Source: a virus | Taxonomy: Duplodnaviria > Heunggongvirae > Uroviricota > Caudoviricetes | Strand: one strand, 5' to 3' | IMG/VR virus record: IMGVR_UViG_2695420456_000022 | DNA length: 7,100 bases | Part shown: piece after piece, positions 1 through 7,100 of the stretch | Layout of the letters: each line of letters opens with the position of its first letter | How positions within the stretch are numbered: the first letter of the stretch is position 1 | Position numbers and translations under genes: made by a program | The notes under the pieces: generated by a model | Databases searched by the model: none | The model's input: only the letters and a program-made list of their open reading frames with translations | What the model was told of the DNA's origin: nothing

Positions 1-217
1 ATATGTCCTTTTATCACCATATCAAGACAAGCCATTGATTTAATTAAATAATCTTCACTGAAAAAAGTGCCAAAAATCGCAAATTGACTACACCATTAAC
101 TACACCGTTCGGTGCACCGTATGAAACAACGTGGAACAAATAGACACAAGAAATATACAGGCGGATCATCTTTCCAGGGGGAAGCGCACCAATTCATGAG
201 GGGCGTTAATGTCTATA

Positions 218-250
218 TGGGGATCCCCACCTACCGGAATTTTTTTCCGG
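218..250. promoter_or_regulatory. Palindrome TGGGGATCCCCA plus CCGGAA-T5-TTCCGG hairpin
   Basis: Perfect 12-bp palindrome at 218-229. Inverted repeat CCGGAA (234-239) / TTCCGG (245-250) with a T5 loop. Function unknown; possible weak plus-strand terminator or protein-binding site. Confidence 0.3.
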
Positions 251-371
251 TTAAACGTTAATCAGGCTGGTGGGCTTTACCTGTTCGGTAGGTGTTATGA
301 TTATCGTAATACCTTTCCCCCAATGGGGTAAAAGCATCAACCGTAACGAAAGTCGTTATGGTTGCCACTGA

Positions 372-452
372 TACCCCAAATTTGGGTATCACGAGTAAGC
401 CCCAAAATCTGGGTGTTACTCTTACTACCCAAACTACGGGTAGTTTCCGTAG
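372..452. repeat. Three phased, degenerate ~27-bp tandem repeats with a conserved dyad core ACCC(C)AAA-N3/4-GGGT
   Basis: R1 372-398 TACCCCAAATTTGGGTATCACGAGTAA; R2 399-425 GCCCCAAAATCTGGGTGTTACTCTTAC; R3 426-452 TACCCAAACTACGGGTAGTTTCCGTAG. R1/R2 identical at 17 of 27 positions. R1 core is a near-palindrome (GATACCCCAAATTTGGGTATC). Related cores at 316-328 and 705-716. Confidence 0.6.
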
Positions 453-462
453 TTTCATGGTC

Positions 463-482
463 GAGTTGCAGATCTGCAACTC
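463..482. repeat. Perfect 20-bp palindrome GAGTTGCAGATCTGCAACTC
   Basis: The sequence is its own reverse complement. It lies immediately after the 27-bp repeats in a region with no convincing ORF. Confidence 0.7.
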
Positions 483-523
483 CCCCATTAACCACAGGCG
501 AATTTCCGCCTTCGGTCATTCCT

Positions 524-574
524 TAATCATCTGCGTAATCATAATGATTATTCAGCAAGCGCAATTTTGCGCTT
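524..574. promoter_or_regulatory. Operator-like motif cluster: TAATCAT twice direct plus once inverted, then a GC hairpin
   Basis: TAATCAT at 524-530 and 536-542, inverted copy ATGATTA at 544-550 (15-bp palindrome 536-550). 8-bp-arm inverted repeat AAGCGCAA-TT-TTGCGCTT at 557-574. Confidence 0.4.
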
Positions 575-736
575 TGCTTAAAGTTCAGCGAGTTACCGCG
601 CCGACTTCCTCAAATTGAGGTTTCCGAAAATATCAGCGGGTTAGCGATTAAGCTGACCATTAATTAAACTGCGAAAATGTCGTAGTTGTGAGGGGTGTAG
701 CCAACCCATTTTTGGGCCGTCGGGAATATCAACCAG

Positions 737-1018
737 TTACCGCCGCAACCGCTCCGGCTTCTTCCAGTGGTACGTTATTTTCTCCTTCTCCCGATACATC
801 TCCACGCGGCGACGGTAGGCCAGCAACTCAAGAACTCTGGTTCGTATGTTGCGCATATCCACGCCATTAAGTTCTATACCATCACGGCGCATCACCTCAG
901 CAACAACACGCGCATAGTTTTCGGCTGTCACGCTGTCCGGCTGCGTGGCCTGTTCGTCAGCCTGCTGGCTGATTCCGGCAACGCGGCGGATTAATCCCGT
1001 TATTTCGGCTTCTGTCAT
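737..1018 (-). CDS. Hypothetical protein (93 aa), last gene of the operon
   Basis: ATG start 13 nt after the terL stop with a GAGG SD 8 nt upstream (TAATGAGGTCAGCAGCATG). Charged, basic C-terminus (KITYHWKKPERLRR). No family recognised. Confidence 0.55.
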   Translation of the reverse strand: MTEAEITGLIRRVAGISQQADEQATQPDSVTAENYARVVAEVMRRDGIELNGVDMRNIRTRVLELLAYRRRVEMYREKEKITYHWKKPERLRR

Positions 1019-1031
1019 GCTGCTGACCTCA

Positions 1032-2693
1032 TTACACCCCGCTAAATTCTTCCAGTTTCTGGCGGTGGCTGTCGCTTATATCAAAAGCAAAATCCTCATG
1101 CTCTGCCTGGAATGTACCAAACGCCATCAGCGCCGCCACGCTCGGGTCTATCTTGTTCGGTGATTTTTTCTTGTTCGGCTTGATATTGGCGTTCGCGTCA
1201 CTCTGCATCACGACGTTACTCATCGACCAGGACAACACCGGATCGCCACGATGCACAATCACCCTGCGGTTAACAAAAACTTCGAACGATTTCGCCGCCG
1301 GACTGAATCTGAGGTAGGTTTGCGGGAACGGCTCCACCTCAAAACCTGCCCCCTGTAATTGCGTTCTGAGATGCGTGGCGTTCCACGTATCAAAGCCCAC
1401 CAGCCTGATATTAAATTTCTCCGCGTCCTGCATGATGTCATCTCTGATCCGGTCGTAATCAATGCAGTCGCCAGGCGTTGTGCGTATCCAGCCTGCTTTA
1501 GCCCACTGACGATAGATGGCGCGGTTTTTATTGGCGGGGTTCTGTAGCTGGAACTCCGGCAGATAATGACGGGAAACCAGCATAATGGTTTTACCTACCG
1601 GAAAGGCATAGCACACGCTGGAAATATCGCTTGTGGATGATAAATCCAGCCCCGCGTAACACTCCTGGCCGTGTAAATCTTCCTCCGTGAACGTTCCGGC
1701 ACACTCAGCCCATGCGCCGTTACCCATCCACGGGGTAGTCCCCTGACACCAGATATTAAATCGCTTTGTCATCATCTCCACCCACTGCGACGGAATACCC
1801 CGCGCTTTCTGGATGGTTGAGGCCAGTTTTTCACGATCCACGGAAACATCAATATTAGGGTTCGCCTTTATCCACATCGCCGGATCATCAACCTCGTTTT
1901 CGTCGTCCAGTTCGTAAATCAGTACAAAAATTGAATCGTTAACCTCTTCGCCGTCCAGGATCTGGCAGCAATAATCATAGTGCTGCTTACAGGCTGAAAC
2001 GACGTTGCTGCCTGATGTGGTAATGGCAAATAACAGCCCTTCGGGACGTGCGCCCATCCCCAGCTCAAGCGCGGAATAAACGCCGTTATCGGGGTGCAAG
2101 TGGTATTCGTCCACGATGGAAAGGCTGGGGTTTGTTCCCTCGATGGTTGCCGCTTTTGCTGCCAGCGGCTTTAACAGGCTGTTGCTTTTCGGGTGTATCA
2201 CCTTATGCGCCTGAATATTCACCCGCCTGCGTAACGGTCGGGATAAAAGGCACATCTGACGCGCATCATCAAAGACGATCCGCGCCTGGTCACGGCTCAC
2301 CGCTGCGGTGTAGATATCCTGCTGACCGTTCTCCATAATCAGAAACCAGTTAGCCAGAATCGCGGCGGTCGTTGATTTCGCATTTTTGCGCGGCACTTCG
2401 ATAAAGGCGCTCGTATATTTGCGCCGTCCGGTGGCCTTAACCTTAAAGCCGAGGATGCACGCAAAGGCGAACTGCTGCCACGGCTCCAGCTCAATGGGTC
2501 TGCCACGCATCGGCCCTTTTACGTGCGGGCACACCCTGGAAAAGGCAATAAACCGATCCACAACCTCACGATCGAACGTGTAAAGGGGGCTTTTAAGGTC
2601 CGAAAAGTACCGTTTAACGGCCTGTTTCAGCCGTTTACAGGCCGGAATTTTGCCCGTTTTTACGTCTTCTGCGTACCTATTCCAGGCGGTCAA
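1032..2693 (-). CDS. terL: Terminase large subunit (ATPase + nuclease), HK97-like Terminase_1 type
   Basis: 553-aa ORF with a P-loop-like VPRKNAKSTTAAI, Walker B-like LSIVDEYH and a C-terminal nuclease-like region (AGLDLSS..., LVGFDTWN). The start codon at 2693-2691 is TTG, preceded by GAGGA at about -11. Confidence 0.92.
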   Translation of the reverse strand: MTAWNRYAEDVKTGKIPACKRLKQAVKRYFSDLKSPLYTFDREVVDRFIAFSRVCPHVKGPMRGRPIELEPWQQFAFACILGFKVKATGRRKYTSAFIEVPRKNAKSTTAAILANWFLIMENGQQDIYTAAVSRDQARIVFDDARQMCLLSRPLRRRVNIQAHKVIHPKSNSLLKPLAAKAATIEGTNPSLSIVDEYHLHPDNGVYSALELGMGARPEGLLFAITTSGSNVVSACKQHYDYCCQILDGEEVNDSIFVLIYELDDENEVDDPAMWIKANPNIDVSVDREKLASTIQKARGIPSQWVEMMTKRFNIWCQGTTPWMGNGAWAECAGTFTEEDLHGQECYAGLDLSSTSDISSVCYAFPVGKTIMLVSRHYLPEFQLQNPANKNRAIYRQWAKAGWIRTTPGDCIDYDRIRDDIMQDAEKFNIRLVGFDTWNATHLRTQLQGAGFEVEPFPQTYLRFSPAAKSFEVFVNRRVIVHRGDPVLSWSMSNVVMQSDANANIKPNKKKSPNKIDPSVAALMAFGTFQAEHEDFAFDISDSHRQKLEEFSGV

Positions 2694-3033
2694 GCTCGTC
2701 CTCTTCTTCTGTTTCCGGTGGATTTTTACGGCGGCTTATCGGGTCAAAACCGAGCAAGGAGGCCATTTTTATCATCACTCTTTCCGCGTCGGATTTCGCG
2801 CTTAATGCGGGGTTTCTGCTCTCGCCGCCCTGACTGTTAACAATGCTGAACCCGCGCGCCGCAAGGTCTGCGACGGCTTTCCGGTATATCGAGTAATTGA
2901 CGCAATACAGTTCCAGATTGCTCCAGTCGGCGGGAGTCAGGTCACCCCGTTCCGCAAGCTGCCGCGATTTTTCCCGCCACTGCTTCACGGCGATATCATC
3001 CAGGTAGGCGGGGGCTTTCGGTGGTCTTGCCAT
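2677..3033 (-). CDS. terS: Terminase small subunit (P27-family-like)
   Basis: 118-aa ORF directly upstream of and overlapping terL by 17 nt. Sequence (YLDDIAVKQWRE...LELYCVNYSIYRKA...GGESRNPALSA...LLGFDPISRRK) fits my recollection of P27-family small terminases, with an acidic C-terminus. Confidence 0.82.
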   Translation of the reverse strand: MARPPKAPAYLDDIAVKQWREKSRQLAERGDLTPADWSNLELYCVNYSIYRKAVADLAARGFSIVNSQGGESRNPALSAKSDAERVMIKMASLLGFDPISRRKNPPETEEEDELDRLE

Positions 3034-3156
3034 GCTTATTTTTTCGCCAGATTATTTTTCAAAAAATTCCCGTGCATAAAAATTTGAGGAGGCGGTCGGT
3101 GCCCGGCGGGGTCGGGTTTGTCCTGAAAACGCCCCCCACCCCGTCATACAGCCTCA
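3034..3156 (-). promoter_or_regulatory. Intergenic region upstream of terS; candidate cos/packaging-initiation region and/or terS promoter
   Basis: About 120 bp non-coding gap between the small ORF and the terS start. It holds a GC-rich tract (3086-3116, GAGGAGGCGGTCGGTGCCCGGCGGGGTCGGG, with GGTCGG twice), a poly-C/poly-G run (3131-3143) and an AT-rich tract next to terS. The position (HNH / gap / terS) is where HK97-like phages place cos. Confidence 0.3.
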
Positions 3157-3339
3157 TCAGCGATTGCGGAAACATTCCATAACCTCGCGGTCACGGTCGG
3201 TTAATCGCTTCGCTGTGATGCGTTCTGCGCATCCTGACGCTTTATCTTTATGCCCTGTTTCCTGTGTCTTCCATGCGTCACGCTGCCTTATAAGTCCACG
3301 GATAAGGCGGTTTTGTTCCCGCTCATTCATCAGCGTCAT
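3157..3339 (-). CDS. Hypothetical small basic protein (57-60 aa), speculative
   Basis: This is the 3' part of the 134-aa track ORF 3157..3561, which extends beyond the HNH stop. Candidate starts are ATG 3339 or ATG 3330, the latter overlapping the HNH stop as ATGAATGA. Product MTLMNEREQNRLIRGLIRQRDAWKTQETGHKDKASGCAERITAKRLTDRDREVMECFRNR. Weak SD; could be a chance ORF. Confidence 0.25.
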   Translation of the reverse strand: MTLMNEREQNRLIRGLIRQRDAWKTQETGHKDKASGCAERITAKRLTDRDREVMECFRNR

Positions 3340-3763
3340 ACATCCAGTTATTGCGGTTAGCGGCCCGTTCTTCCTCTTCACGAAATCCACCTGCGGCACG
3401 CTTACTTTTTGTTGCCGGATCAAGCCATTTCGTTTTCTGGTTATGGCACGCCTGACACAATGGTTGATGGTTCCATTCGGGCCAGAAGAGAACATCATCA
3501 CCGCCATTAATCGGGATAATGTGATCCACCACCACGGCGGGCGTATATATCCCCTTCTCAAGGCATCGCACGCATAACGGGTTTTTACTCAGATACATGG
3601 CGCGGTATTTGTCCCACTGTCTGGAGTACCCACGCGCGCGGCGGTGTCCTCGTCTGGCATCCTCTGCACGCCATGCCGCCCGCCTGTGCTCCTCACACTT
3701 GCCGGACTTCACGCGCCTGTTACAGCCTGGTTCTGTGCATCGTCTTAATGGTTGCCACGGCAT
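3323..3763 (-). CDS. HNH endonuclease (terminase-associated)
   Basis: 146-aa ORF with Cys pairs (CTEPGC, CVRC, CQAC) and HNH core VVDHIIPINGGDD...NHQPLCQACHNQK. Start ATG overlaps the connector stop (TGATG, 3761-3765). It lies immediately upstream of terS, as in HK97-like cos phages. Confidence 0.85.
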   Translation of the reverse strand: MPWQPLRRCTEPGCNRRVKSGKCEEHRRAAWRAEDARRGHRRARGYSRQWDKYRAMYLSKNPLCVRCLEKGIYTPAVVVDHIIPINGGDDVLFWPEWNHQPLCQACHNQKTKWLDPATKSKRAAGGFREEEERAANRNNWMYDADE

Positions 3764-4059
3764 CAGTACACCCCCACATCACGGTAAGCCGTCCAGAGTG
3801 CACCAATCGTCATGGGTACGCGTGTTTTTGCGTTATCCGCGACAATCTGGCGATTTTCATACAGGTGAGCGATAAACATCATGCAGCCAATCTTTATGGC
3901 TGGCGTGAACTCCAGCCCGTCATCAAAGCGCCTGCCTATGTGTATCTGGCACGCCTCAAGCGATGCGGCAATGTATCCGCTGATTAACTGGTCTTCCTCG
4001 TCGCCATCGATGCGGCAATGGAGTTTCACTTCTTCCAGGGTGATAAGTTCTTCTGTCAT
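3763..4059 (-). CDS. gp6-like head-tail connector protein
   Basis: 98-aa ORF; N-terminus ITLEEVKLHCRIDGDEEDQLISGYIAAS matches the L.E.K.HLRID.D.DD.LI..I.AA signature of gp6-like connectors. ATGA overlap with the upstream gene stop (4056-4059). Confidence 0.7.
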   Translation of the reverse strand: MTEELITLEEVKLHCRIDGDEEDQLISGYIAASLEACQIHIGRRFDDGLEFTPAIKIGCMMFIAHLYENRQIVADNAKTRVPMTIGALWTAYRDVGVY

Positions 4060-4394
4060 TTTTCCGCGCCCTCACGACAAAGAATTTCAAGGCGTGTCCT
4101 GGCGGCATCCGGCAGCGGCTGCCCGATGATATTCAGTACACGCCCCGCCAGCGGCCCCGTATTGACCTTTATCCGGCTGGTGGCGTTGATGTCCTTCCTG
4201 TAGCGTATCCATACCCTTACCGTTCCAGTCGCCAGTTCTGCACCCGATGAAATGGCCTCCTTGCTGCTGATCATGTTCACGCTTGCCCAGAGTGTGTGAC
4301 CGTCCACCCACGTTTCGAGTATTTCGCCCGTCATGGCTCTGGTCTGTTTCAGGGTCTGAATCGTTACCCTGTCACGCAGTCGCCCTATGTTCAT
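4056..4394 (-). CDS. Head-closure / head-tail adaptor protein (HK97 gp7-like, Phage_H_T_join-like); the ORF track starts it at 4436, but the ATG at 4394 is favoured
   Basis: Sequence MNIGRLRDRVTIQ...VRVWIRYRKDI...RLEILCRE matches the head-closure family pattern. The ATG at 4394-4392 overlaps the portal stop (4393-4391) as ATGA and has AGGGAG upstream; the 4436 ATG has no SD. Confidence 0.7.
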   Translation of the reverse strand: MNIGRLRDRVTIQTLKQTRAMTGEILETWVDGHTLWASVNMISSKEAISSGAELATGTVRVWIRYRKDINATSRIKVNTGPLAGRVLNIIGQPLPDAARTRLEILCREGAEK

Positions 4395-5602
4395 TCCGGT
4401 TTTTCTCCCTCGCTGATTTTTACTTCCTGTTTCCATGCCTGGCTGAACTCATCACCACCATCACGCGGTGACAGTCCTTCACGTTCGCGGGCTTCGTTCG
4501 GACACATAACGCCGGATTTGATGCCGCGCTCATAGGTGGCAAAGCGTTCGCCAGGTGTGGCCCGTAACAGGTCCGCGCTGTCAAACTCCACCTGATACCG
4601 GATACCAGGTACAGGCGAGGCCACCAGCAGGGCGTTTTTTATCTGCTGCTCAAAGTTCGCCAGCCACGGGCGCATCGTCATGGTGAGAAATGCGCGGCTT
4701 GCCTCGCTGAAATTGCTGTAGGTGCTGTTGCTGTATTCCTGCAAAAAAATCGGCGAGACGTTGAACATTCTGGCGATGTCTTCAATGGTGAAGCGACGGG
4801 AGGCCAGCCATTCAGCATCCTGATTACTCATGCCCAGCTGCTGATAGCTCATACCCCCTTCAAGGATGGGCGTTTTTCCGGCGTTTCTGGCCCCTTTGTA
4901 GCGTTCCAGTGCGGCTAATGCCTGTTTGCCCTTCACGCCGTCCAGCCATTCGCCTGACGTGATAACCCCTGCCGCCATCATGCCATCACGCATCACGCTC
5001 GCGCCGTGGCGTTGTTGGGCCAGCCCAAGCCCCAGCGATTCGCGGCAGATGGTTACAGGTGAGCGCCCCATAAAACCGTCATCCGTGGAGTAACGAAGGT
5101 GGAGAACCTCCCACGGTAAATAGTTGCGGGTGTTTCCGGTGTAGGCGTCAGTGATGCAGTAGCGCCAGTTATGCTCACCTGTCTGCTCAACGTTCACCGA
5201 CTGCGGCGGGTAAGGATGCAAAGCGACCGGAAAACCATCACGCCCCCACTGAATCACCGCATAAGCATTACCGTTTAACAGGCAGTGGCGGATCATCATT
5301 CGCTTAAACTGGTAGGGGGTTTGCCATGCGTTCGGGCGCTCGTTGAGGATGTGATCGACCGGATGAGAATCAAGCCACTCGCGGGCCTCCTTCCCCTTCT
5401 CATTGCGTACCAGGTACAGGTAACACGGCATGGTAGCCACCGCCTCAGAGATGACCGTCACGGCGTTCATGACGGCGGGCAGTGATTCCGCTGTCCCCGA
5501 TGATACGTACTCACCCGCCCCCGTGTTCGATGTGCCAGCCAGCGCCATAAACTCATCAAGCGTCATGCTGCGCTGCTCTTTTTTTCTTCTGAAAGGCCAC
5601 AT
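4391..5602 (-). CDS. Portal protein, HK97 family
   Basis: 403-aa ORF whose length and conserved blocks (LLNGNAYAVIQW, EVLHLRYSTDDGFMGRSP, RFTIEDIARMFNVSPIFL, RPWLANFEQ) fit the HK97-type portal pattern. Its start is 1 nt after the protease stop, and a GGGGGTG SD-like element lies upstream. Confidence 0.88.
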   Translation of the reverse strand: MWPFRRKKEQRSMTLDEFMALAGTSNTGAGEYVSSGTAESLPAVMNAVTVISEAVATMPCYLYLVRNEKGKEAREWLDSHPVDHILNERPNAWQTPYQFKRMMIRHCLLNGNAYAVIQWGRDGFPVALHPYPPQSVNVEQTGEHNWRYCITDAYTGNTRNYLPWEVLHLRYSTDDGFMGRSPVTICRESLGLGLAQQRHGASVMRDGMMAAGVITSGEWLDGVKGKQALAALERYKGARNAGKTPILEGGMSYQQLGMSNQDAEWLASRRFTIEDIARMFNVSPIFLQEYSNSTYSNFSEASRAFLTMTMRPWLANFEQQIKNALLVASPVPGIRYQVEFDSADLLRATPGERFATYERGIKSGVMCPNEAREREGLSPRDGGDEFSQAWKQEVKISEGEKPE

Positions 5603-5603
5603 A

Positions 5604-6176
5604 TCACACCCCCGCTAAATCCGCCCACCAGCGGCGATTATCCGCACGCGGCATTTTTTCGGGGTGCTGCTCATACAGGGAACGGCGGGCCAGCTCCACG
5701 TCGGAATCAGGGTAAGCCGGTACGGATGTAACGGTAATTTCGTACAGTTCCGCCACCAGCACGGTGCGCACGCATGGATCTGTTGTGGTATCCCATACAT
5801 CCTTACGGGAACGAAAGCCAAAGCTCATGCCGGATATATCACCTCGTTTAACCAGTTCGATAACGTCGCGCCCTGTACTGGTATCCGGTGGGGTCAGTTC
5901 AAAGCGTAACCCTGTTTCGTCCTCTTCCAGTTTCAGCGTGCCGGAACGGGTGCGCCCCAGTAACATGCTGTGGTCATGCTCATACAGGCCGCGAACGTCA
6001 TTACCCGCCGCAAGCCATTCAGTAAACGCCCCCCGCTGGAATTTTTCGTAAAACTCACCCCATAACAGTTCTGAAAGCTTATCCCAGCGAACAATGTAGC
6101 CCGTCAGCGTACCGGCTCCGCTGGTGGTGATTTCCGATGACCGGATTTCCATACTCTTCATAATTTTTTCACCCAT
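5604..6176 (-). CDS. Prohead maturation protease, HK97 family (S78-like)
   Basis: 190-aa ORF with motifs GYIVRWD, GAF, YEHDHSMLLGRT (candidate catalytic His) and GMSFGF (candidate catalytic Ser), then YEITVTSVPAYP. ATG at 6176 has no obvious SD; the ATG at 6161 (MKSMEIR...) is preceded by GGGTGA and may be the true start. Confidence 0.85.
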   Translation of the reverse strand: MGEKIMKSMEIRSSEITTSGAGTLTGYIVRWDKLSELLWGEFYEKFQRGAFTEWLAAGNDVRGLYEHDHSMLLGRTRSGTLKLEEDETGLRFELTPPDTSTGRDVIELVKRGDISGMSFGFRSRKDVWDTTTDPCVRTVLVAELYEITVTSVPAYPDSDVELARRSLYEQHPEKMPRADNRRWWADLAGV

Positions 6177-6185
6177 AAAACACTA

Positions 6186-6205
6186 AAGGGGCTTTTAAGC
6201 CCCTT
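6186..6205 (-). terminator. Hairpin between capsid and protease genes; possible partial intrinsic terminator or attenuator
   Basis: Inverted repeat AAGGGGCTT (6186-6194) / AAGCCCCTT (6197-6205). On the coding (minus) strand it lies just after the capsid stop codon (6216-6218) and is followed by TTTAGTGTTTTAT before the protease ATG. The U-tract is interrupted, so it is not a textbook terminator. Confidence 0.35.
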
Positions 6206-6215
6206 CTGTATGCTA

Positions 6216-7100
6216 TTAATCGTCGTCCTGTGGCAGTTCCAGAATCTTGATCGCGTTCGAATCCACCACGCCACCGCCTAAATATTTCTGCGCGAAAATT
6301 TTGATGAAGCCCGGCTCTGTGAGGTTGTCCGGTCTGGTGCGAACACCTGTTTCGTGATCAACAATGTAGTAACCGCGTTTGAAGTCACCCAGGGCAATAA
6401 CGTTATCCGGCATAAACTCCAGATATTCGACCGGAAGGCCCAGCAACGTATCAGGATCACCCGCCTGTAAACGGTCACGCCAGATGTAATCACCGTTCGC
6501 GTTCTTCACCTTCTGGAGTTTTGCCGCCGTCGTGGAGTTAACCACCCAGACCGCGTTTTTGCGGTATTTTTTACGTAATGCAAATTTCAGGTCGATCAGC
6601 GGGTCCGCAGATGTCCACGCCAGAGATTCGGAAGGTTTAATTACCTGCAACGTACCAAAATCACGCTCTTTGTCGTTCTTCTCTGCACGGGGTACGGATA
6701 AAAAGCCTTTTGCTTTTTTGTCACCGTCGCCCACAACCAGATCGCTTTCTTCGGTTTCCGTGAAGGTGTCGCCAATCTCGCCCGTCAGCCATGAAAGGAT
6801 GTCCACATCGGAAAAATCCACGATTTCCTGCGTGGTGCGCGGGTACGCATAGACCGGATACAGCTTAATGCTCACCTCGTTAATCTGCGGGGTGCTGGTC
6901 TGTTCGCGTGCCTTACCCTCTTCACCGTGGTTAACGGTCGCACCGCCAGCGGAAACAAGCTGCTTAAACTCGTTGCTGCTGATTTTCTTCGTAAGCGTCG
7001 TCTCAGCACCGTCTGGCAGATCCTGAAATTCCTGAGAGAATAGTGGACACCAAATATGGTGGACGCTATCCATGAAATCATTAACCGCAGTGCGTAAAAA
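6216..7100 (-). CDS. HK97-fold major capsid protein, 5'-partial (reading frame stays open to the window edge at 7100; the ATG at 7073 is probably internal)
   Basis: The C-terminal half (LLGLPVEYLEFMPDNVIALGDFKRGYYIVDHETGVRTRPDNLTEPGFIKIFAQKYLGGGVVDSNAIKIL) matches the conserved pattern I associate with HK97-family capsid proteins (L.G.PV...MP....GDF...Y.I.D..G..........F.......GG.V.D..A.K.L). There is no in-frame stop between 7073 and 7100 and no Shine-Dalgarno before the 7073 ATG. It sits next to protease and portal genes. Confidence 0.8.
   Translation of the reverse strand, partial: FLRTAVNDFMDSVHHIWCPLFSQEFQDLPDGAETTLTKKISSNEFKQLVSAGGATVNHGEEGKAREQTSTPQINEVSIKLYPVYAYPRTTQEIVDFSDVDILSWLTGEIGDTFTETEESDLVVGDGDKKAKGFLSVPRAEKNDKERDFGTLQVIKPSESLAWTSADPLIDLKFALRKKYRKNAVWVVNSTTAAKLQKVKNANGDYIWRDRLQAGDPDTLLGLPVEYLEFMPDNVIALGDFKRGYYIVDHETGVRTRPDNLTEPGFIKIFAQKYLGGGVVDSNAIKILELPQDDD

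Follow-up and report, generated by a model that had tools for sequence, protein, structure and literature searches.

Palindrome modules related to interior segments of lambdoid phage roi, kilA-N and ant genes at the non-coding end of a capsid-forming phage-inducible chromosomal island

The 7,100-nucleotide stretch analysed here (hereafter the window; IMG/VR record IMGVR_UViG_2695420456_000022) is, by its gene order and insertion site, part of an EcCIEDL933-type capsid-forming phage-inducible chromosomal island (cf-PICI) located at the phoQ stop codon, between phoQ and roxA, and positions 1-736 are its integrase-distal terminal segment. The reading preferred here, held at roughly even confidence, divides this segment into one arm of the attachment (att) site (1-139), a spacer (140-336) and a run of palindrome modules (337-746) drawn from the interiors of the phage genes ant, kilA-N and roi, which would be bound by the cognate phage proteins together with integration host factor (IHF). 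The island family, its att site and the arm architecture are known, while the reiteration of the Roi/IHF self-site, in non-coding form and in a satellite, appears to be new. No description of palindrome/IHF arrays, or of a roi, kilA-N or ant origin for them, was found in the literature on PICIs, and literature searches on small RNAs (sRNAs) or IHF in PICIs returned nothing relevant.

Palindrome modules and their phage counterparts

On sequence comparison, the region 337-746 is a tandem patchwork of palindrome modules of 30-48 nt, each homologous to an internal segment of ant, kilA-N or roi (Table 1). Its right-hand part comprises four 48-bp units, made up of the repeat families D2 and D4, in which an allele-specific palindrome is joined to an IHF-type tail in what aligns as the arrangement inside roi; the last unit overlaps the stop codon of orf93. 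The tails include an exact IHF consensus (727-739), a site with one mismatch (631-643) and two degenerate sites. The internal site of roi is copied in the unit at 601-648: positions 605-629, which contain the CCTCAA-A-TTGAGG palindrome listed in the first-pass annotation, are identical at 25/25 positions to roi of phages HK633 and CUS-3, and over 601-635 there is 91% identity with the roi genes of HK620, HK633, H-19B and others. A relaxed, unbiased BLAST search with 548-746 returned 148 phage records, with essentially all matches in roi, Roi DNA-binding or anti-repressor genes and at one place in each.

In roi of phage HK022, CTGCATTGCAG is followed 11 nt on by AATCAATGATTTAGG. At the same codons, roi alleles carry different palindromes, namely CCTGCATTGCAG in HK022, CCTCAAATTGAGG in HK633 and CUS-3 and CCCCCAATGGTGG in the 933W type, each followed by the same IHF site. 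All three palindrome types occur in PICI arrays, those of the 933W and HK022 types in the CFT073 island and at three further loci (L019, L023 and L027), the HK022 type appearing as CCTGCATTGCAG with AATCAATG..TTAGG. The Roi protein of HK022 reportedly binds a site inside roi itself, adjacent to an IHF site, a binding that IHF is said to stabilise. The stretch 601-635 likewise combines a short palindrome, an IHF consensus within ~10 nt and roi-internal homology, but whereas the phage site is single and in frame within roi, the island has no roi gene and its units are non-coding, tandem and of several alleles.

To the left of the units, the module with the palindrome TAACGA-AAG-TCGTTA (337-365) is identical at 25/29 positions to an internal segment of 933W ant (TCAACTATAACGGAAATCGTTATGGTTGC, encoding STITEIVMVA). 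A relaxed, unbiased BLAST search with 335-548 returned 269 phage records, and 337-365 falls in ant of ~230 records of Shiga toxin (Stx) and lambdoid phages. The adjoining 123-bp block contains three dyads, H1-H3, at a 27-bp spacing. H1 differs from GATACCCAAAATTTGGGTATC (DTQNLGI) by a single mismatch, H3 resembles ACTACCCAAAATTTGGGTAGT (TTQNLGS), 462-483 differs from CGAGTTGCAGATTTGCAACTCG of SfII at two positions, and BLAST places the window stretch 462-491 in KilA-N genes. For the hairpin at 497-510 the likeness amounts to no more than a resemblance, less close than in the remaining modules.

The prophage genes in which a scan of IMG/VR located the H1 dyad pattern belong to the nin region and code for KilA-N domain proteins of the ST64B sb46, SfII gp46 and mEp460 type. 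In an alignment of eight KilA-N genes, a hypervariable linker lies just before the conserved PVN..RGG..GTYVCKELV, and in each allele this linker is occupied, in frame, by a different perfect palindrome of 21-29 bp, among them GATACCCAAAATTTGGGTATC (DTQNLGI), ACTACCCAAAATTTGGGTAGT (TTQNLGS), CGAGTTGCAGATTTGCAACTCG (SELQICNS, SfII), ACTACGGGAGATTCCCGTAGT (PhiR49) and CCGAGGGCGGAATTCCGCCCTCGG (TEGGIPPS, ST64B/Stx2c). In the ST64B/Stx2c genes CCGAGGGCGGAATTCCGCCCTCGG is followed by an exact IHF consensus, and the TEGGIPPS palindrome has its counterpart in a hairpin beside the block of L003-type islands. Phages with arrays of the H1 dyad, considered as the origin of a decoy, were rejected as the IMG/VR scan gave single copies only, in KilA-N genes. 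A separate observation concerns the phage genes themselves: in kilA-N (L162, L193, L220 and L226-L230) and roi (L225 and L231-L234) the hypervariable in-frame segment is a perfect, allele-specific palindrome of 11-29 bp, such that coding sequence and DNA dyad are superimposed and the dyad may be a putative self-operator.

The 123-bp block is present in 706/5426 complete E. coli genomes (13%), and parts of 1-736 occur in about a quarter of them. All copies are found in PICI-type islands, which vary in att site and packaging module, and there occupy the int-distal end in one orientation, with the stop codon of whichever gene closes the late operon 45-250 bp away. The open reading frames (ORFs) to the left of the block in related loci belong for the most part to neighbouring phages or islands and not to defence cargo, and a scan of genome contigs with the 20-bp palindrome gave chance matches only. 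Two copies of the block, 434 bp apart, occur in some cf-PICIs (L044 943-1501, also L024, L065 and L097); the cassette between them holds three direct copies of GCGGGTTA, an AT-rich stretch and three inverted copies of TAACCCGC, and is origin-like but unlike the CCTCACTTTT iterons. Some block-carrying islands sit inside prophage late genes, interrupting the major capsid or terminase gene, and represent helper-embedded satellites (L013 1153-3542; L022 and L050, left of the block). An Abi-family gene lies between att and the block in the L013-type island. The sequence CGTAATCATAATGATTATT at 534-552 agrees with the Fur box consensus at 14/19 positions, a score reached in 11/500 shuffles of the region, and a duplicated version is found in EDL933.

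A serious rival to the preferred reading, although rather unlikely in its own right, is that the modules are non-functional leftovers of ant-, kilA-N- or roi-type accessory genes in a 3' hotspot, or patches captured by exchange with lambdoid prophages, with palindromes over-represented only through promoting template switching. The pattern of conservation speaks against such debris. Only the palindrome-plus-IHF part of roi is found in the islands, never other parts, and it occurs in tandem, in several alleles and with a constant 48-bp period, in numbers ranging from 1 to ~9 units per island (~9 in EDL933, 4 in CFT073 and 1-3 in others). Among 66 distinct, diverged units from related islands, drift is seen at the N positions of the consensus WATCAANNNNTTR, its other positions being nearly invariant. 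Exact IHF consensus sites number 1-5 per island end region, where ~0.02 would be expected, and the other 13.8 kb of the island contain none. The block is conserved above neutral expectation relative to the neighbouring orf93: against L004 it is 94.3% identical and the adjacent orf93 80.9%, with a third-position divergence of 0.33, the contrast is similar in L013 and L014, and conservation of the block lies far above that of third codon positions 50-250 bp off. Debris is favoured, on the other hand, by the longer, frameshifted and stop-containing similarity of L003-type islands to the N-terminal part of KilA-N (AG..E..RP ... TEGGIPPS ... DTxxLGIA, collinear and with similar spacing), by mosaic breakpoints (280, 366, 365 and 487) that fall at module edges, by slippage-like indels of 9 and 27 nt and by the prototype islands without the block.

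Several of these points also weigh against modules derived from phage genes and bound by phage proteins. All of the window pieces lie in one open frame (+, 358-618) and are possibly relics of a mosaic gene, the high conservation of the block may reflect recent recombinational exchange rather than selection, and the block appears dispensable since both EcCIEDL933 and EcCICFT073 lack it. Furthermore, units A, C and D of the window have no identified phage counterpart, binding by Roi, KilA-N or Ant is predicted from sequence and from the reported self-binding of HK022 Roi, and the individual matches to KilA-N and ant genes span only 21-30 nt and have E-values of 2-8. The matches are concentrated in one gene class, the anti-repressor family, and it is because all of them fall there that the short ant and KilA-N matches persuade.

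Palindromes associated with IHF sites are also known from bacterial interspersed mosaic elements (BIMEs) and repetitive IHF-binding palindromic (RIP) elements, in which repetitive extragenic palindromic (REP) sequences are combined with an IHF site at the 3' ends of E. coli operons. The units share with these the combination itself, the variable-copy tandem arrays and the position directly past the last gene of an operon. They differ in that their palindromes change from unit to unit and derive from phage genes, and in being confined to PICI-type islands, matches in the phage collection lying only inside roi, ant or kilA genes. No match to the REP consensus within three mismatches was found save a spurious one inside orf93, which rules out the REP/BIME reading. 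An integron attC-like reading was considered and set aside, no search for an integron integrase having been made.

Table 1. Features of the integrase-distal end of the island, in window positions
Feature	Position	Strand	Remarks
Part of att core	1..8	.	Right-hand 8 bases of the 10-bp AAATATGTCC; int-distal junction, attR in PICI convention
IHF consensus site AATCAATGGCTTG = WATCAANNNNTTR	28..40	-	Between core and arm-type repeats
Integrase arm-type repeat block	82..117	+	With ACTACACC-N4-ACTACACC
Direct repeat ACTACACC	87-94 and 99-106		
Palindrome CGGTGCACCG	110-119		
Second arm motif	122..139	+	TGAAACAACGTGGAACAA; GAAACAA (123-129), GGAACAA (133-139)
Conserved spacer	140..336	.	Alignment of six islands
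Palindrome TGGGGATCCCCA	218-229		In spacer
Hairpin CCGGAATTTTTTTCCGG	234-250		CCGGAA-T5-TTCCGG; in spacer
Chi GCTGGTGG	266-273	+	In spacer
Palindrome module	337..365	+	TAACGA-AAG-TCGTTA; homologous to internal segment of Stx-phage ant (anti-repressor)
Palindrome TAACGAAAGTCGTTA	344-358		TAACGA-AAG-TCGTTA
123-bp block	365..487	+	Dyads H1 370-390, H2 394-420, H3 424-444; perfect 20-bp palindrome 463-482
Hairpin GGCGAATTTCCGCC	497..510	+	Resembles GGCGGAATTCCGCC palindrome (TEGGIPPS) of ST64B/Stx2c-type KilA-N genes, L003-type islands
Four tandem 48-bp units	553-600, 601-648, 649-696, 697-744	+	Variable short hairpin, then GAAAATATCAACnnGTTAg-type tail
Palindrome CCTCAAATTGAGG	608-620		CCTCAA-A-TTGAGG
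orf93	737..1018	-	Last gene of late (packaging) operon; phrog_1561; also in classical PICI EcCICFT073

The island and its attachment-site arm

The segment 1-736 shows a 99.7% match to E. coli FORC_042, in which a 14.8-kb island lies between phoQ and roxA and window position 1 is the first base past the phoQ stop codon. All genes of this island read leftward. Those for the integrase (Int), an AlpA-type helix-turn-helix protein, a RepA-family helicase, a single-stranded DNA-binding protein (SSB) and PerC come first, followed by those for the major capsid protein, prohead protease, portal, head closure, connector, HNH, P27-type small terminase subunit (TerS) and large terminase subunit (TerL) and by the 93-amino-acid ORF, orf93. 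A 736-bp gap then precedes phoQ, and roxA lies past int at the opposite end. TerS of the window matches the Pfam family Terminase_4. The island thus has the int gene, AlpA-type regulator, replication module and capsid-to-TerL genes of a cf-PICI, without tail or lysis genes and in the size range of ~10-15 kb, as well as a dedicated att site flanked by direct repeats, a 10-bp repeat marking each junction and K-12 having the site unoccupied.

The same gene set is described for EcCIEDL933, the prototype cf-PICI, which is induced by a helper and transferred in its own small capsids with helper tails, its helpers being the HK-type lambdoid phages HK106 and HK022 (Alqurainy et al., bioRxiv 10.1101/2022.09.08.507074; 10.1101/2025.02.11.637232). 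For the present island, helper induction and transfer in its own capsids are presumed only by kinship with this prototype. The EDL933 and CFT073 islands likewise occupy the phoQ-roxA site. EcCIEDL933 also shares the end order HNH, P27-type TerS, TerL and orf93 and a 48-bp unit array of like kind, and its island end is 90.6% identical to window 1-366; it differs in having ~9 units and no 123-bp block, where the present island has four units and the block. Neither of the two EcCIEDL933 papers (10.1101/2022.09.08.507074; 10.1101/2025.02.11.637232) gives an account of the non-coding end. EcCICFT073 shares the att site, a 94% identical integrase, the unit array and window 1-280, over which the two are 90% identical.

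The first-pass annotation had proposed that the element boundary and att site would sit in this left end if the element were a satellite, and both claims are borne out by comparison with the empty phoQ-roxA site of K-12. The repeat AAATATGTCC spans window positions -1 to 8, its first two bases being the last two of the phoQ stop codon, and occurs at both FORC_042 junctions (L001 14999-15008 and 29784-29793), while the empty K-12 site has AAATATGCCC within the 75-bp phoQ-roxA spacer. Identical at both junctions and single in the empty site, as is a lambda-type attP core, it places window positions 1-8 within the att core, with island DNA to the right. The IHF consensus site at 28-40 is kept in six islands at phoQ and tqsA, its NNNN varying between TGGC, TGGG, TGCA, TGCG and TATG, where ~0.02 matches per region are expected by chance.

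The direct repeat ACTACACC flagged in the first-pass annotation belongs to a set of integrase arm-type sites. The 36-bp block containing it recurs, in unchanged orientation and with 33/36 positions identical, beside int (L001 29634-29669), 25 bp upstream of where int starts, and the 18-bp TGAAACAACGTGGAACAA recurs in the same int-proximal arm (L001 29684-29701) and is a candidate site for Int or an AlpA/Xis-type factor. Arms were compared among islands with integrases 75-94% identical to one another, located at phoQ (FORC_042 and CFT073), tqsA (PE164) and clpS-cspD (MS724). In every case a single ACTACACC-N4-ACTACACC pair is found near int and a single further pair ~85 bp inward from the distal junction, so that arm repeats distinct from the core lie on both sides in four islands at three att sites. 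The second arm motif co-varies across the arms, with GAAACAA/GGAACAA in two island types and CGAACAA on both arms in the clpS island. The palindrome CGGTGCACCG, likewise listed in that annotation, is absent from CFT073 and from the int-proximal arm copy and is probably incidental.

With a core, an IHF consensus and then repeats on both arms, the anatomy resembles that of a lambda-type attP, and 1-139 constitutes one arm of the attachment site, with predicted binding by Int, IHF and an AlpA/Xis-type factor. Positions 1-8 would form part of the 10-bp site of strand exchange and 28-40 an IHF bending site. Both arms would flank the core in the excised circle, and Int, through one domain that binds the arms and another that binds the core, would join with IHF in bridging arms and core to form the recombination complex in the manner of lambda-type attP. 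The likeness extends to the short duplicated core, the core-unrelated repeats on both arms and the IHF consensus between core and arm repeats. In contrast to the lambda type, the arm repeats here are in the same orientation on both arms, in near-identical 60-bp blocks, and the same repeats accompany related integrases with different cores; Int, IHF and AlpA binding is here a prediction. Islands at tqsA (L016/L017) are 98.6% identical over window 33-736 and also have the sequence beyond the core in common, the difference lying in the ~25 bp around the core (cf. window 9-32); their integrases are 77-79% identical over the N-terminal 90 amino acids against 93-94% in the remainder, with arm repeats unchanged.

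The spacer is conserved among phoQ- and tqsA-type islands, and promoter-like matches are no commoner than in shuffled sequence. The Chi octamer that it contains is one of seven copies of GCTGGTGG in the window (266, 1397, 4176, 4621, 5625, 5753 and 6120). This is an unusually high density, that of Chi in E. coli being roughly 1 per 4.5 kb. The 11-kb CFT073 island (L005 14272-24388) has ~11 Chi, both orientations occurring, and the packaged relative vB_KppS-Ant has six, all in one orientation. A replication origin or P4 crr-like iterons in 1-736 were rejected, the island having its own iteron-containing, AT-rich origin outside the window, 3' of the RepA helicase gene (L001 23920-24119, CCTCACTTTT repeats). 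The repeat ACTACACC is not a replication iteron, as it tracks the integrase and not the replicon type.

Composition, coding status and packaging

The first-pass annotation had judged 1-736 by eye to be AT-rich, dense in symmetric sites and without a convincing ORF, and each of these impressions holds. The GC content is 43.6%, compared with 53.8% in 737-7100. Perfect inverted repeats with a stem of at least 6 and a loop of at most 9 number 13, against 1.7 +/- 1.4 in 300 dinucleotide shuffles, none of which (0/300) reaches 13, and against 1-3 in coding windows of equal size; for stems of at least 7 the count is eight against 0.44 in shuffles. All seven of the motifs it listed are present where it placed them.

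Six ORFs of 40-86 amino acids in the segment gave no credible Pfam or PHROG match, the sole match being a partial one of 23 amino acids between 44-169(-) and phrog_21128. The 86-amino-acid ORF at 358-618(+) has only 21 relatives, which are labelled 'hypothetical', rarely called and unrelated in their C-termini. Substitutions among block variants are distributed 8:6:11 across codon positions, with no concentration at the third. A small protein gene was rejected on the lack of a family match, the lack of third-position bias and the variable C-termini, and 1-736 is treated as non-coding, as far as testable. In some genomes the NCBI pipeline calls a 52-amino-acid 'hypothetical protein' (WP_157835993.1, WP_001364204.1) across the block, at 337-495(-); this looks over-called, given that palindromic DNA keeps the frames of both strands open, and ELQICNS is read on both.

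A further alternative takes the hairpins to act in RNA, as a structured 3' untranslated region (UTR), stabiliser, weak terminators or 3'-UTR-derived sRNA, or as an insulator separating the leftward late operon from phoPQ transcription, which reads rightward into the island because of the insertion at the phoQ stop codon. The modules do stand directly after the stop codon of any gene that ends the late operon, runs of 3-4 T follow many of the unit hairpins on the + strand, and a few G-U-compatible changes favour that strand. The block folds far better than shuffles on both strands equally (z about -8), which can be counted for a structured RNA but is expected of any DNA palindrome. Moreover, a terminator scan found no site passing in 1-733, there are no U-tracts on the - strand, wobble evidence favours different strands in different hairpins and RNAalifold, applied to 42 distinct block copies, gave no consistent consensus structure and little covariation. 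The transfer (tRNA/tmRNA) and non-coding RNA searches that the first-pass annotation had suggested were both empty for the region (ARAGORN, 0; cmscan against Rfam at E<=1, 0). A structured RNA was rejected on the absence of Rfam and tRNA matches, the equal folding of the strands and the little covariation, and the RNA or insulator alternative as a whole is considered improbable.

As had been surmised, the segment lies at the downstream end of the packaging operon, directly past orf93, the gene that closes the late operon in capsid-forming as well as classical PICIs. The orf93 family is narrow, with 36 cluster representatives at 50% identity, all in Enterobacteria. The protein has no Pfam match and no relative with a solved structure, and its AlphaFold2 model is all helical and of low confidence (pLDDT 61). 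The int-distal end is one of the places where PICI accessory and immune genes have been reported; the suggested accessory hotspot therefore stands as regards position, but no cargo gene is present here.

The suggestion that cos would sit in 1-736 fared less well, and a cos or pac site of the satellite in this segment is now regarded as highly improbable. A place where the packaging operon ends would suit such a site, three repeats with a palindrome superficially recall the R sites of cosB with cosN, and lambda cosB is known to contain IHF sites. Against this, no lambda-type cosN (GGGCGGCGACCT) occurs in the window within two mismatches, and classical PICIs that carry the block have a lambda-like cosN 1-2 kb away from it, upstream of terS or rpp; GGGCGGCGACCT is present elsewhere in CFT073 and L003. 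With HNH-dependent terminases, moreover, cos normally lies between HNH and terS. The IMG/VR contigs examined are prophage predictions without physical ends, but the 16.5-kb record of vB_KppS-Ant (LR881103), a cf-PICI derived from virions, starts 22 bp before terS and ends in a conserved G-rich ...GGGGTGGGGGAGGTTTTCAGGAC, homologous to window 3142-3120 (-), with the homology stopping exactly there, so that its ends map to ~3120 and 22 bp before terS. The island's own cos probably lies in the HNH-terS gap (~3034-3322), especially at ~3100-3130. The cos1 and cos2 sites of EcCICFT073, which have no equivalent in the window, are upstream of orf93, at L005 14901 and ~15640 (Fillol-Salom et al. 2019, PMC6739421).

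Possible roles of the modules

The description of the segment as protein-binding DNA in the first-pass annotation is a reasonable reading, in view of its conserved IHF consensus sites and of palindromes common with the roi self-operator region. The modules appear operator-like on account of their homology, of the reported self-binding of HK022 Roi with IHF, and of the presence of only the palindrome/IHF portion of roi, in tandem and in several alleles. The unit palindrome would accordingly be a putative Roi binding site, and the modules may be bound by phage Roi-, KilA- or Ant-type proteins and IHF as a decoy or sensor. As operator-like sites for these proteins and IHF, they would let the satellite titrate or sense the regulators of lambdoid (HK-type or Stx-type) helpers or competitors, its gain possibly lying in titration, sensing or cis-activation. 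That they constitute a functional multi-allele operator array with IHF, serving as a decoy or sensor for such regulators or else as a library of silent cassettes recombining into phage genes, is put forward only tentatively, as a possibility short of likely. To our knowledge, neither a non-coding decoy/sensor nor a silent-cassette device has been described for phage satellites.

The att arm is ordinary in itself, but it reveals exactly where a medically relevant satellite family ends and which of its motifs are sites for integrase and IHF. What is unexpected is that the dyad-rich DNA beyond it consists of short palindromes, some with IHF sites, that are found inside roi, kilA-N and ant of lambdoid and Stx phages. 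As debris, the modules would be a sign that satellites and one class of helper genes frequently exchange sequence. If, instead, they bind phage proteins, PICIs would gain a non-coding means to sense or titrate helper regulators, which would bear on how Gram-negative PICIs recognise and interfere with their helpers and would point to a function for the poorly understood Roi, Rha and KilA proteins and to their link with IHF.

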